From contig CAVEPA010000002.1 in assembly GCA_963617485.1 (NCBI GenBank), forward strand, positions 111,163 to 175,162: a DNA stretch of 64,000 nt, read 5' to 3'. The first letter of the stretch is position 1; every line of letters begins with the position of its first letter. Below, piece by piece: positions 2,650 through 57,689 of this stretch. The notes beneath the pieces were generated by a model. That model ran no database searches. It was not told the DNA's origin and worked only from the letters and a program-made list of their open reading frames with translations. Made by a program: the position numbers and the translations under genes. This DNA is from a bacterium (GTDB lineage: Bacteria; Bacteroidota; Bacteroidia; Bacteroidales; UBA1402).

Positions 2650-3672
2650 TTAAAACAGTTCCAGGTCTTTGCCCATCGGCGTGCGGCCAAGGTGCTTCCA
2701 GGCCAGTTCCGTCACTTCACGGCCACGCGGTGTGCGCTTGATGAAGCCTTCTTGAATAAGGAAAGGCTCATACACATCCTCCAAAGTACCCGGGTCTTCG
2801 CCCAAAGCCGTAGCAATGGTGGTAAGACCAACCGGTCCGCCCTTGAACTTGTCGATGATGGTCAGCAATATCTTGTTGTCGATTTCGTCCAAACCATAGG
2901 TGTCGATGTTGAGTGCCGACAAGGCGAAACGTGCGATTTCCAGCGTGATACGGCCGTTGCCTTTCACCTGTGCGAAATCCCTTACGCGGCGCAACAATGC
3001 GTTGGCGACACGTGGCGTACCCCTGCTGCGGCGGGCTATTTCGATGGCAGCTTCCAGGTCGCAGGGAAGCTGCAGCAACCGGGCCGAACGCAGGACAATG
3101 TCCTTCAAAATGTCGCTTTCGTAGTAATCCAGGTGGCAATTGATGCCGAAGCGGGCTCGGAGCGGTGCGGTAAGCATGCCGCTGCGGGTGGTGGCTCCAA
3201 TCAGGGTGAAGGGGTTCAAGTCCAAACGGATAGAACGTGCGGCCGGACCTTTGTCTATCATAATGTCGATGCGGAAATCTTCCATGGCCGAGTAGAGGTA
3301 CTCTTCCACTACAGGGTTTAGGCGGTGAATTTCATCGATGAAAAGCACATCGTGTGGCTCAAGCGAGGTCAGCAGACCGGCCAAGTCGCCAGGTTTATCC
3401 AGCACTGGTCCAGAAGTAATCTTGAAGCCTACGCCCAGTTCGTTGGCGATGATGTTGGAAAGTGTGGTTTTGCCCAATCCTGGAGGGCCGTGCAGCAGTA
3501 CGTGGTCCATAGGCTCTTCGCGCAGCTTGGCGGCAGAGACGAAAATCTCCAGGTTCTCCACTATCTTTTTCTGACCGCTGAAATCGGAAAAACGCAAGGG
3601 GCGCAGGGCCTTTTCGATTTCCCGTTCGCTTTCGTTAAGATACTGGTTCCTAATATCGAATTGATTGTCCAT
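2650..3672 (-). CDS. ruvB: Holliday junction branch migration DNA helicase RuvB
   Basis: 340 aa with Walker A ([14 protein letters not shown]) and Walker B ([10 protein letters not shown]), and full-length RuvB-like sequence. Confidence 0.97.
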
Positions 3673-37894: not shown

Positions 37895-37919
37895 TTCCCT
37901 AAAGCGAATCATAAGTGTC

Positions 37920-37948
37920 AGACCGTATTTATTACGGTCTTTTTTTTT
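37920..37948 (+). terminator. Intrinsic terminator after rpsT
   Basis: Stem AGACCGTA/TACGGTCT with a 5-nt loop, followed by a T8 run. Confidence 0.85.
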
Positions 37949-38638: not shown

Positions 38639-38763
38639 AAATCAGCCTCAATCCGGCAGGATATTTTTTGACATCTTTCGGACTTGATAAGCCGTTATTT
38701 GTCTTAAAATATGTTAATTTAATGAATTATTACTCTCTTTATATGATTTTTTTTTGGCCGATA

Positions 38764-54694: not shown

Positions 54695-55083
54695 ATCACT
54701 TTTTCTACCATCAATTCCCATGTTACACAATGTAATGCTCCACCTCTTTTTACAAGTGGCATTGCATATATCGGCATAATTTCCTTATTCGGAAACAATC
54801 TTGTCATCAAGTGGATTGCCTCTATATCATTGGGATAGTCATTCAAATAGCACCATGAGTCTGGCTCCAACTGACAATCATAGTTCAATTCCACAACATC
54901 AAAATGAGCATCAAGTATTTTCCGCAACCTTCTGTAAAACGCCTTCACTTGACATCTTGCATGTAATTCTAGGGAAGGCTACACATACAAAATCTTCTTG
55001 GCTAGTTCTGTAAACTCATTGGTAATTGATTCTTCAGAGGATGTGCCGCCATGGAAAGTCTTAAGCAAATCGTTAAGTGTCAT
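54691..55083 (-). pseudogene. Small gene interrupted by one in-frame TAG (54979-54981). The C-terminal part carries a GG-x-x-HC-x-T motif reminiscent of guanidino-modifying enzymes.
   Basis: Hand translation from ATG 55083 gives MTLNDLLKTFHGGTSSEESITNEFTELAKKILYV-TAG-PSLELHARCQ. It then continues in the same frame into the track ORF (VKAFYRRLRK...LFPNKEIMPIYAMPLVKRGGALHCVTWELMVEKVI). It has its own -7 promoter. Its stop overlaps the HD gene stop (TTAA). Confidence 0.4.
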
Positions 55084-55107
55084 GATGAAGTCTTTTGTTT
55101 CTTGAAG

Positions 55108-55115
55108 CAAAGGTA
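55108..55115 (-). promoter_or_regulatory. -7 promoter element (TACCTTTG) for the interrupted gene
   Basis: Plus-strand caaaggta, 25 nt upstream of the ATG at 55083. Confidence 0.5.
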
Positions 55116-55161
55116 ACCCTTTTTCCAAGATTGACAACCGGTAGGTCGGGCGTTCCAAGGT

Positions 55162-55233: not shown

Positions 55234-55261
55234 TACGATTTCGAAAAAATGTTAGAGAGTG

Positions 55262-55666
55262 ATGAAACTGGTAATCAGTATATTGTTCGGTCTGCTGCTC
55301 GAGTGGTTTTCTCCAGCCTCGGGTGTCCCTTCCGCTGCTTCGGCAGAGAAAGACGCTCGATGTGCTTCTGGCAAACTGTCCGAGTGGTTGAATATCGACT
55401 TTGGAGATGCCACCCTGCAACCCACGGCCCAAAACACCTATTCGGTGACGGTGAAACAGTGGCAGCAGATTCTCAACTTTAGGATTCGTGCCGAAAAACG
55501 TAGCTATTATCGTCTTTTCAGAAGCGACAATACTCATCTTAACTTGCATCAGAAGTACCATGAAATCAATCATCTACTCGATTCTGTAGATTTTAGTGTA
55601 TTGCTTTCATCGTTTCGCCACGAGCCGAACGCTCTGCAAACTTTTTATTGTGTTTATCGGATTTGA
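55262..55666 (+). CDS. Small secreted protein of unknown function
   Basis: 134 aa from ATG 55262 (the track start at 55259 is GTG). The N-terminus MKLVISILFGLLLEWFSPASG is signal-peptide-like. I recognise no family. Confidence 0.45.
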   Translation: MKLVISILFGLLLEWFSPASGVPSAASAEKDARCASGKLSEWLNIDFGDATLQPTAQNTYSVTVKQWQQILNFRIRAEKRSYYRLFRSDNTHLNLHQKYHEINHLLDSVDFSVLLSSFRHEPNALQTFYCVYRI

Positions 55667-55708: not shown

Positions 55709-56149
55709 ATGGAAACAACCTTTATAAAAGCCAGAAATTTTTCCGATTACGCCTTCTCTGTATCAGTGTTCTTATTCGGCCTTACGCTGGTTCTAGTTCC
55801 TACCAGTTTTGGCATGAATGTTGTCGGAGGTGTGATTATCGTCACCGGTATGATTATGTTCTTTGCGCTCAGAAGCGTTTGGAAAGATGTGAGAACCGGC
55901 GATTTATATCGAGGCAGGGTATTGTATTTCAATAATTCCAAGAAGCAAGCCGTTATGGAAGCGCTAGCCGACGAGCTCTCCAAACTCTCCGAAATTCCTC
56001 AGGAAAACAAAGCGTACAATAGCCTGCGTCTGTACATGTATTATAATAAGCGCAAAGGTAAGTGCTATTGCGAGCTATACGAATATGTTCCATGCGAGTA
56101 TGTTCCTCTGACTGAACTTCTTCTCTTCAAAATAGGGGGGGGGATTTAG
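55709..56149 (+). CDS. 2-TM membrane protein of unknown function, tandem paralogue 1
   Basis: 146 aa. Predicted TMs lie at about residues 14-31 and 36-54, followed by a ~90-aa soluble domain ending in YCELYEYVPCEYVPLTELLLFKIGGGI. A G9 tract encodes GGG two codons before the stop. Confidence 0.55.
   Translation: METTFIKARNFSDYAFSVSVFLFGLTLVLVPTSFGMNVVGGVIIVTGMIMFFALRSVWKDVRTGDLYRGRVLYFNNSKKQAVMEALADELSKLSEIPQENKAYNSLRLYMYYNKRKGKCYCELYEYVPCEYVPLTELLLFKIGGGI
56135..56143 (+). repeat. G9 homopolymer near the 3' end of paralogue 1
   Basis: Counted directly: 9 consecutive G at 56135-56143. Confidence 0.95.
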
Positions 56150-56230
56150 AAGGACTTCTCTGAATTGTCGGAGATTTGGTGAATCGTCTTAGAAAAACTT
56201 TTCACCAATCAACTACAATTAAGAATCATT

Positions 56231-56695
56231 ATGGAAAATACTTTTGTCAAATATAGAACGCTAACCGATTATATTATCTCTTTGTCAGTATTCCTTCTCG
56301 GCCTAGTACTGATTATGCTTTCCTCTACGGCCGCTATGAACATCGCCGGTGCCATGATTGTCATCCTTGGCGTGGTATTGTTCTTTTCTCTTAGAAGCGC
56401 CTGGAAAGAAGTTGTTACCGGCGATACTTATCATGGCAAGGTGCTGTATTACAACCGCTCTAAAAAACAGGCCATTCTTGATGCGCTCACCAGTGATTTC
56501 TCCAAGATCTCCGAAATAGACCAAGAAGAAAACGCCCAAAAGAGTCTGCGACTGGATGTCTATTACAATGAGGCCAAGGGCAAGTACTACTGCCGTCTGT
56601 ACGAATATATCCCTTACGAGTATGTGCCTCAAACTGAGTTACTTGTCCTCCAAATGGGGGGGGGAGAAAAACCTCTCCGCTATCGTCTCAGGTAA
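56231..56695 (+). CDS. 2-TM membrane protein of unknown function, tandem paralogue 2
   Basis: 154 aa, collinear with paralogue 1. Shared strings include TF.K.R...DY, LRS.WK.V.TGD.Y.G.VLY.N.SKKQA, SLRL..YYN..KGK.YC.LYEY.P.EYVP.TELL and GGG. Its G9 tract is at the equivalent position. Confidence 0.55.
   Translation: MENTFVKYRTLTDYIISLSVFLLGLVLIMLSSTAAMNIAGAMIVILGVVLFFSLRSAWKEVVTGDTYHGKVLYYNRSKKQAILDALTSDFSKISEIDQEENAQKSLRLDVYYNEAKGKYYCRLYEYIPYEYVPQTELLVLQMGGGEKPLRYRLR
56656..56664 (+). repeat. G9 homopolymer near the 3' end of paralogue 2
   Basis: Counted directly: 9 consecutive G at 56656-56664. The first G is the third base of an ATG codon. Confidence 0.95.
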
Positions 56696-56735
56696 ATAGA
56701 ACAATTCGTTAAAAAGGTTCTTAATAACTTCAATA

Positions 56736-57689
56736 ATGATGACATGGATTTATCTTCTGCTCTCGCTGGCGGCTGTTGTCGTAGGAGCGGAAGTCTTGGT
56801 CGATGGCTCTGTGGCCATAGCCAGAAAATTCAAGATTGCAGACTTTATCATTGGTGCCACCATCGTCGGGATAGGAACCTCCTGTCCCGAGTTGGTGGTG
56901 AGCCTTGTAGGAGCAATCGATAACAACGCCGACATCGCCATCGGCAACGTAGTGGGGTCGAATATCTGCAACATCCTGCTCATTTTGGGTATATCGGCAC
57001 TCATCACCCCGCTGCCCATCCTCAAAGAGAATGTTAAGTTCGAATTGCCGTACTGCATAGGTGTTTCGCTTCTGCTTTGTCTGTTGGTCTACGATTTCTT
57101 CACGGCTACTTGCCCCATGCTGGGTCGGCTGGATGGTCTGATACTGTTGGCCGTCTTTGCCGTTTACATGTATCTGTCGCTGCGTAATGGCAAGAAGGGA
57201 ACCACGTCCGGAACTGAACAGCCCGACAAGGCTCCTGTGAAGGAAGTGCATCGGAAGACAATATGGATAGTGCTGGAGATTCTTTTCGGTTTGGCCATCC
57301 TTATCACTGGAAGTCATTTCTTTGTAGATGAAGCGGTAGTCGTAGCCCGTCAGTTGGGTGTGAGCGATGCCTTTATCTCCATTACGGTGCTGGCTGTGGG
57401 AACTTCCCTGCCCGAGCTCGCGGCTTCGGTGGCTTCTGCCGTCAAGAAGAATGCACAATTGGCCCTTGGCAATATTATCGGTTCGAACATCTTCAACATC
57501 AGTTTTATTTTGGGTGTCTGCTCGCAGGTAACGCCTCTAACTGCCGGTGGAATCGGTATTTTCGATTACGGAATGATGATGGTAGCCGCTTTGATGCCTC
57601 TCCTTTTTGCGCTTAAGGGAAGAATCAGCCGTTTCGGCGGAATATTCATGTTGGCTATGTACGTGGCCTACCTGATTTATCTTAAATGA
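56736..57689 (+). CDS. CaCA-family cation/Ca2+ antiporter (YrbG-like), paralogue 2
   Basis: 317 aa with alpha-repeats GTSCPELVVS...GSNICNI and GTSLPELAAS...GSNIFNI. I estimate roughly 40% identity to paralogue 1 by eye. Confidence 0.9.
   Translation: MMTWIYLLLSLAAVVVGAEVLVDGSVAIARKFKIADFIIGATIVGIGTSCPELVVSLVGAIDNNADIAIGNVVGSNICNILLILGISALITPLPILKENVKFELPYCIGVSLLLCLLVYDFFTATCPMLGRLDGLILLAVFAVYMYLSLRNGKKGTTSGTEQPDKAPVKEVHRKTIWIVLEILFGLAILITGSHFFVDEAVVVARQLGVSDAFISITVLAVGTSLPELAASVASAVKKNAQLALGNIIGSNIFNISFILGVCSQVTPLTAGGIGIFDYGMMMVAALMPLLFALKGRISRFGGIFMLAMYVAYLIYLK

Follow-up and report, generated by a model that had tools for sequence, protein, structure and literature searches.

Two neighbouring genes of an uncultured gut bacterium of the order Bacteroidales (GTDB lineage UBA1402) each carry a run of nine G residues just ahead of the stop codon, which raises the question of whether the two runs act as a slipped-strand switch for the C termini of the encoded proteins. 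The genes are tandem paralogues in the stretch of DNA analyzed here, hereafter called the window (64,000 nucleotides [nt], positions 111,163 to 175,162 of contig CAVEPA010000002.1, assembly GCA_963617485.1). A first-pass annotation made from the letters alone had proposed such a switch, and the two runs lie exactly where it had placed them, on the plus strand inside the open reading frames (ORFs) of the two genes:

56135-56143, plus strand: poly-G tract 1, G9, inside the ORF of paralogue 1
56656-56664, plus strand: poly-G tract 2, G9, inside the ORF of paralogue 2
55709-56149, plus strand: paralogue 1 (copy 1), 146 amino acids (aa) in the G9 state, with two N-terminal transmembrane (TM) helices and a domain of about 90 aa, probably cytoplasmic; uncharacterised Bacteroidales family
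56231-56695, plus strand: paralogue 2 (copy 2), 154 aa in the G9 state, taken from the ORF list; paralogue of copy 1

The tracts occupy codons 143 to 145 at the 3' ends of these genes of about 150 codons. They had been described as sitting at the same codon position, which needs correction, as their phases differ: copy 1 reads ATA GGG GGG GGG ATT TAG, and copy 2 reads ATG GGG GGG GGA GAA, so that the second run includes the G of the Met codon and begins one base earlier than in copy 1.

Both G9 runs exceed the length of at least about 7 nt, in or next to a gene, that characterises the mononucleotide tracts of homopolymer contingency loci. They are also the only long G runs in the window, as had been noticed before: apart from these two runs of 9 nt, G or C runs in the 64 kb do not exceed 5 nt, a length that 20 of them reach, and lengths of 6, 7, and 8 nt are absent. 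An analytic first-order Markov calculation gives an expectation for 64 kb of about 22 G/C runs of 6 to 8 nt (0 found) and about 69 of 5 nt (20 found); dinucleotide shuffles held on average 0.34 G9 matches, with at least two in 9 of 100 shuffles. Two G9 runs are therefore unremarkable on composition alone and are outliers against the window's own run-length spectrum. The genome avoids G/C runs, and the two tracts are exceptions. A/T runs in the window, unlike G/C runs, attain 8 to 9 nt. Two T9 runs look ordinary: the one within 37919-37948 is the T-tail of a terminator-like hairpin (GACCGTA...TACGGTC), and the one at 38747-38755 lies in AT-rich sequence outside any ORF of at least 90 aa.

If the tracts were contingency loci, their lengths should differ among close relatives. 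We read tract lengths from the DNA of the encoding contigs in about 20 public assemblies of the window species and of its sister species (90 to 94% nt identity to the window). In the window species, the following lengths of tracts 1 and 2 were found:

window: tract 1 G9, tract 2 G9
SRR13434655: tract 1 G9, tract 2 G10
GCA_963656495: tract 1 G10, tract 2 G7
GCA_963643115: tract 1 G10, tract 2 G10
SRR13434666: tract 1 G10, tract 2 G10
SRR13434646: tract 1 G10, tract 2 G12
GCA_963614915: tract 1 G11, tract 2 G10
SRR13434649: tract 1 G11, tract 2 G9
GCA_963620385: tract 1 G11, tract 2 G9
SRR13434654: tract 1 G11, tract 2 G9
GCA_963604475: tract 1 G8, tract 2 G10
GCA_963614925: tract 1 G7, tract 2 G10
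GCA_963645155: tract 1 G9, tract 2 G8-A-G (G10 interrupted by G to A)
SRR13434665: tract 1 G9, tract 2 G8-A-G (G10 interrupted by G to A)

Three further contigs of the window species cover one tract:

SRR13434680: tract 1 G9; contig ends in tract 2
SRR13434647: tract 1 G10
SRR13434633: tract 2 G10; contig starts in tract 1

Five contigs represent the sister species:

ERZ27279226: tract 1 G10, tract 2 G9
ERZ27279220: tract 1 G7, tract 2 G9
ERZ27279234: tract 1 G9, tract 2 G9
ERZ27279225: tract 1 G11; contig stops ahead of tract 2
GTDB representative (locus L014): tract 1 G9, tract 2 G7 with an 8-nt deletion

Thus, the strain comparison that the first-pass annotation had called for reveals variation in near-identical strains, from G7 to G11 at tract 1 (G7, G8, G9, G10, and G11 over both species) and from G7 to G12 at tract 2 (G7, G9, G10, and G12 in DNA, and G8 as deduced from the called protein P0020). 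The two tracts change length independently of each other. As expected of contingency loci, length is polymorphic among close strains, and the changes are confined to the tracts. The variation is also visible at the protein level, where clusters at 90% identity contain members with the same body and unlike lengths: 146, 150, 151, 160, and 161 aa for copy 1, and 154, 155, 157, 159, and 160 aa for the full-length products of copy 2, to which P0023 (144 aa), truncated at tract 2, is added. Gene callers give six different lengths for these genes, which inflates protein-cluster diversity.

Homopolymers are error prone, the data are short-read metagenome assemblies and metagenome-assembled genomes (MAGs), and contigs break at the tracts; the apparent alleles could accordingly be sequencing or assembly artefacts around a true length that is fixed. 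Several observations speak against this explanation. When 13 loci were aligned to the window over about 6.4 kb each, we found 0 to 21 mismatches and at most 2 gaps per locus, and all gaps fell at the two tracts, with flanks 99.6 to 100% identical; within this 6.4-kb region, A/T homopolymers (one A7 run and several of 6 nt) kept a constant length across the loci. Different lengths occur on otherwise identical DNA, as between the window and locus L007 (0 single-nucleotide polymorphisms [SNPs] over 3.6 kb, yet G9 versus G10) and between L002 and L012 (0 SNPs over 3.9 kb, yet G9 versus G8). Likewise, L037 and L039 have unlike tract lengths on haplotypes 0 to 1 SNPs apart, G7 and G10 were found on haplotypes separated by 1 SNP, and four sister-species samples of one European Nucleotide Archive (ENA) study carry G7, G9, G10, and G11 at tract 1 with 1 to 5 SNPs per 2.6 to 6.5 kb. 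Conversely, different assemblers agree: in the pairs L037/L038 and L039/L040, which we assume to stem from the same samples, MEGAHIT contigs from ENA and Logan contigs are 99.98 to 100% identical and equal in tract length, and the interrupted G8-A-G allele was recovered from both an NCBI MAG and a Logan run. The lengths span 7 to 12 nt rather than plus or minus one, and differences of 3 to 5 nt between majority calls are well beyond usual homopolymer miscalls. Assembly or polishing error, which the first-pass annotation had wanted excluded, is therefore unlikely given the agreement between MEGAHIT and Logan, differences of up to 3 to 4 nt, and the lack of any other indel in the 13 loci. We regard the polymorphism in tract length as almost certainly real and an artefact as highly improbable.

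The breaks themselves have a second reading. Locus L002 stops after the ninth G of tract 2, L036 opens with the GGGGGGG of tract 1, and the shortened protein P0023 is cut off at tract 2. An assembly graph breaks at a repeat when the sample holds several lengths, and contig ends inside the tracts indirectly suggest mixed lengths within a sample. A metagenome scan with tract 1 and its flank returned a single match (L043), unrelated and due to chance. As a rough estimate, a stepwise mutation model with an allele diversity of about 0.7 per tract and a SNP diversity of about 0.0016 per site puts the mutation rate of the tracts at least about 3,000-fold above the substitution rate per site. One assembly, L041 (GCA_963645155.1), has a problem near tract 1, namely, a run of N (scaffold gap) within copy 1 about 55 nt upstream of the tract, at the window-equivalent positions 56071-56081, because of which the copy 1 protein called in this assembly has 133 aa.

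Next, we asked what a change in length does to the products. Downstream of each tract, translation in the three frames gives the following tails:

56144-56192, plus strand: three-frame tail region of copy 1, by translation
copy 1, G9/G12: I-stop, TAG at 56147-56149; called protein P0008
copy 1, G7/G10: DLEGLL-stop, family-like, TGA at 56161-56163; called proteins P0006/P0009
copy 1, G8/G11: FRRTSLNCRRFGESS-stop, TAG at 56190-56192; called proteins P0001/P0007
56665-56712, plus strand: three-frame tail region of copy 2, by translation
copy 2, G9/G12: EKPLRYRLR-stop, TAA at 56693-56695
copy 2, G8: EKNLSAIVSGK-stop, TAG at 56697-56699
copy 2, G7/G10: RKTSPLSSQVNRTIR-stop, family-like SQVNRTIR, TAA at 56710-56712

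The distance from tract to stop is 1 to 15 codons. All six tails had been predicted correctly, and five of them occur among the proteins called in the window species, whereas the sixth, that of copy 2 with one G fewer, was seen only in the sister species, as EKNISAIVSGK with one substitution. Hence, called proteins with all three tails exist for each paralogue, and a change in length alters the frame and the product.

To judge which tail is the native one, the family to which the genes belong has to be considered. Copies 1 and 2 share 56% aa identity over 145 residues without gaps (about 68% at the nt level). Scans of both proteins against Pfam, NCBIfam, and PADLOC gave no match above threshold, and a profile search returned 72 homologue clusters, nearly all of about 148 aa, the few named ones coming from Bacteroidales MAGs or metagenomes; the genome loci of relatives are from Bacteroidales MAGs, Alistipes, Tidjanibacter, and Cryptobacteroides. 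Both copies thus belong to a Bacteroidales family of 2-TM proteins of about 148 aa that has no Pfam entry (E values of 1e-72 to 1e-75 in the profile search), and both share its hallmarks: the pair of TM helices at the N terminus and a beta-rich domain bearing the motifs RLDVYY and EYVPYxY. The third hallmark, the C-terminal helix (V..LIK), would be encoded only at tract lengths of 3n+1 (G7 and G10). AlphaFold2 models were compared for a typical member, P0045, and for P0003, a G7 allele of copy 2 (mean predicted local distance difference test score [pLDDT] of 93.2 and 84.6, respectively). Both contain a short N-terminal strand, two TM helices, and a beta-rich domain with two inserted helices. 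Only in P0045 is there a confident C-terminal helix, at residues 140 to 147 straight after the last strand, with an average pLDDT of 92 over the final 8 residues; P0003 has a confident core to about residue 143. Neither model had a match with an E value below 0.26 in a Foldseek search against the PDB.

We compared each tail, without gaps, with the last columns of a family hidden Markov model (HMM) built without the window lineage, whose consensus ends in ...leleevkklik. SQVNRTIR of copy 2, encoded at lengths of 3n+1 (G7 and G10), ends exactly at the profile end and scored 7.3 bits, with none of 500 shuffles as good, and DLEGLL of copy 1, likewise at 3n+1, scored 2.9 bits (p=0.016). The three other tails scored (3n and 3n+2) had p values of 0.09 to 0.77, and the GGGI of copy 1 at G9 (3n) is too short for profile scoring. 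The 3n+1 tails of the window and of the sister species differ by four substitutions, all four at codon position 3 of that frame (chance of (1/3)^4=0.012 by our own calculation). Three are synonymous, and each of the four is nonsynonymous in any other tail frame that still covers the site; with n=4 substitutions, this may be a signature of purifying selection in the 3n+1 tail frame. In addition, copy 2 stays in the 3n+1 frame in the two alleles with a locked length (G8-A-G, and G7 combined with the 8-nt deletion). Given the profile match, the four position-3 substitutions, the two locked alleles, and the confident C-terminal helix of the family, we infer that 3n+1 is the native frame. Only lengths of 3n+1 would then encode a family-like C-terminal helix, on evidence that is consistent but thin, and the tract would sit at the junction of the last beta-strand and this helix and decide whether the native helix is made. 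Under this assignment, the window genotype (9,9) would have both genes in a non-native, alternative state. The tail switching of the first-pass annotation thus holds in that the tail changes with length; its choice of G9 as the reference state does not, since the family-like C terminus appears only at 3n+1, and the switch is better put as a native helix that is on or replaced than as three equivalent tails.

Where do the tracts come from, and does selection keep them? Homologues at up to 57% identity have neither a G run nor a Gly at the tract position, and their length is constant; in the P0004 cluster (34 members), 15 of 15 listed members are 148 aa. The tracts therefore arose as a novelty within the lineage that comprises the window species and its sister. 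The run is not accounted for by protein constraint, as the family does not conserve these Gly residues. Both copies in both species keep uninterrupted runs of at least 7 G in spite of about 44% aa divergence between the copies, and the identity of the copies is no higher near the tracts than elsewhere, so that recent gene conversion does not explain the matching tracts. The first-pass annotation had reasoned that mixed Gly codons in orthologues would mark the homopolymer as incidental; the runs of both species are pure G.

These observations have to be weighed against a simpler explanation, in which slippage is real and the hypermutable tracts are neutral, being tolerated because frameshifts at the 3' end do little harm, with no selected switch. 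Several points agree with it and count against a switch with a native frame. All frames occur as majority alleles: the three frame classes of copy 1 are about equally frequent (6, 5, and 5 of the 16 window-species contigs with tract 1). Both genes are non-native in 5 of the 18 samples in which both tracts were read (4 of 14 in the window species and 1 of 4 in the sister), and as genotypes of this kind are common, the bacterium can persist in the gut without the helix, and the tails could be close to neutral. In copy 2, the native class is the more frequent one (10 of 15), but its samples are not independent of one another: in some cases the same sample may underlie both an NCBI MAG and a Logan contig, which holds for the other counts as well. 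The tail helix of the window lineage is modelled at a pLDDT below 50, outside the confidently folded core. An hmmsearch of three tail variants against the family HMM detected no homology in any tail, as the alignment stopped at about position 140 of 148 in all of them, with scores within 1.5 bits; this result being uninformative, the ungapped profile test was used instead, and the frame assignment thus draws on that ad hoc test and on four substitutions only. For heterogeneity within a sample or a clone, the contig breaks are the one line of evidence, and they suggest it. On the other side, the genome is otherwise free of G/C runs of 6 nt or more, yet both paralogues in both species keep runs of at least 7; Gly is not conserved in the family; one tail frame appears to bear the mark of purifying selection; and the native helix is modelled with confidence in the typical family member. 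On balance, neutral hypermutable tracts seem to us a rather unlikely explanation, though one to be taken seriously, and we put the chance that the tracts are kept as a switch by selection just short of even.

A further explanation places the effect at the level of RNA or expression: transcriptional slippage or ribosomal frameshifting could yield several tails per genotype, or tract length could tune the downstream gene (copy 2 or the Na+/Ca2+ exchanger gene that follows it). G runs of at least 9 are potential slippage sites, and the next start codon follows tract 1 after 87 nt and tract 2 after 71 nt. Transcriptional slippage has been surveyed mainly for A/T runs (PMC1088944). Downstream of each tract, at a distance of about 45 nt, there is one sigma-70-like match, and the promoter and terminator scans placed no site over either tract. 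RNA folding around the tracts was not significant (z of -1.5 and -1.4), and Rfam gave no match there. Programmed recoding sites are normally of fixed length, whereas the run length here varies from 7 to 12, and no alternative frame extends to the next gene; with an unconserved run length and no shifted frame leading into another gene, the tracts do not fit the class of programmed slippage or frameshift sites. Moreover, slippage on RNA might add heterogeneity but cannot account for heritable differences in DNA length, and we consider this explanation improbable. Phase variation of the inverton type was also considered and rejected: the only inverted repeat is weak (21 nt, 76% complementary) and lies inside coding sequence, and no flanking repeats of the inverton type are present.

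What remains is a slipped-strand, poly-G contingency-type locus with a 3n+1 native frame, a full model that we hold to be moderately probable. In this model, the G:C homopolymer of each paralogue would gain or lose a G by slipped-strand mispairing in replication, far faster than substitutions arise, and tract length modulo 3 would set the C terminus: 3n+1 would give the family-like helix (DLEGLL in copy 1 and ...SQVNRTIR in copy 2) and any other length one of two unrelated tails. Independent switching of the two genes could then provide up to nine protein combinations per population. Direct observation covers the polymorphism in length, its confinement to the tracts, and the proteins that result from it; the identity of the native frame, an altered function, and selection keeping the tracts as a switch are inferred.

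As to what would be switched, the distribution of Lys and Arg (at the N terminus and after TM2), read by eye from the sequence, suggests that both termini are cytoplasmic. A cytoplasmic location of the domain, as predicted, makes antigenic variation at the surface unlikely. The neighbourhood offers some context:

55259-55666, plus strand: upstream ORF of 135 aa with an N-terminal hydrophobic segment resembling a signal peptide (by eye); conserved syntenic partner in relatives
56736-57689, plus strand: gene of the Na+/Ca2+ exchanger family (PF01699), downstream of copy 2 and syntenic in relatives

In the closest tract-free relatives, L015 and L016 (43 to 48% identity), the 2-TM gene is single copy, and the order is a small ORF with a signal-peptide-like segment (by eye), the 2-TM gene, a 570-aa gene (4470-6185 in L015 and 4449-6161 in L016), and a Na+/Ca2+ exchanger gene homologous to the PF01699 gene of the window. 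The 570-aa gene, which resembles a Na/Pi cotransporter, is presumably one, as recognised from its sequence. In the window lineage, the second 2-TM paralogue fills the position held by the 570-aa gene in these single-copy relatives. Judging from gene order, the 2-TM family consistently adjoins ion transporters. The stop codon of the Na+/Ca2+ exchanger gene overlaps the start of a 1042-aa gene of the GH106 family (ATGA, 57686-57689), which suggests a putative operon running from the 2-TM genes into the glycoside hydrolase. Farther upstream, the two species differ: in the sister-species locus L014, a 216-aa ORF (2722-3372, minus strand) is flanked by an HD-domain gene and the signal-peptide-like ORF. 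Of this 216-aa ORF, the window retains about the first 33 codons, within a 59-aa ORF at 54979-55158 (minus strand), and has the remainder swapped for 289 nt of unrelated sequence with an 85-aa ORF (54695-54983), which looks like a small replacement or indel islet beside the locus.

Homopolymer phase variation of a similar kind is known from Neisseria, Haemophilus, Helicobacter, Bordetella, and Mycobacterium tuberculosis. In Campylobacter jejuni NCTC11168, 29 poly-G/C loci have tracts of at least 7 (PMC4965091). The locus described here resembles the C. jejuni contingency loci in having an intragenic G:C homopolymer of 7 to 12 nt that is polymorphic in near-identical strains, in that length modulo 3 sets the downstream frame, and in that several loci vary independently. 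It differs from them in its host, in the position of the tract near the stop codon rather than early in the gene, so that only the C-terminal helix is affected, and in its target, which is a probably cytoplasmic domain of an uncharacterised inner-membrane protein and not a surface structure. A closer parallel is found in Neisseria meningitidis, where repeats in the 3' part of NMB1998 and NMB0039 are predicted to give alternative C termini (PMC5084427). There too, the repeat shifts only a C-terminal peptide out of frame and the rest of the protein is still made; unlike in that case, tandem paralogues here both carry the tract at an equivalent structural junction, and all three frames were seen directly in natural alleles.

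Within the Bacteroidales, the action of invertases on invertible promoters and shufflons is the sole mode of phase variation that a recent review gives for Bacteroides (PMC11868660), and an older paper merely speculates on a run of four C's in Bacteroides fragilis (PMC3090145); among the papers covered by our literature search, none reported homopolymer phase variation in the order. The locus shares with Bacteroidales invertons the bacterial order and, putatively, a heritable and reversible heterogeneity of the population. Unlike invertons, it has no flanking inverton-type repeats and involves no recombinase, and what changes is the length of a homopolymer. Slippage-type switches are thus well known in pathogens and barely documented in Bacteroidales. 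The mechanism itself, simple-sequence-repeat contingency, is already classical, and what deserves attention is the host clade, the arrangement in tandem paralogues, and the structural junction near the stop codon. Tentatively, and with less confidence than we place in the switch model, one might go further: homopolymer slippage could be a second route to phase variation that has been overlooked in gut Bacteroidales, with a poly-G switch selected at the same junction of two paralogues through divergence and speciation, and with the presence of a C-terminal helix combined independently on two membrane proteins that synteny links to ion transporters.

Phase variation in Bacteroidales has been studied almost wholly through invertible DNA, and the programs that find invertons are blind to homopolymer switches. 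If sequencing reads confirm the switch, metagenomic surveys of gut commensals should scan G/C tracts too, and functional studies of the uncharacterised 2-TM family, which adjoins Na/Ca and Na/Pi transporters, would have a natural series of on/off alleles to draw on.

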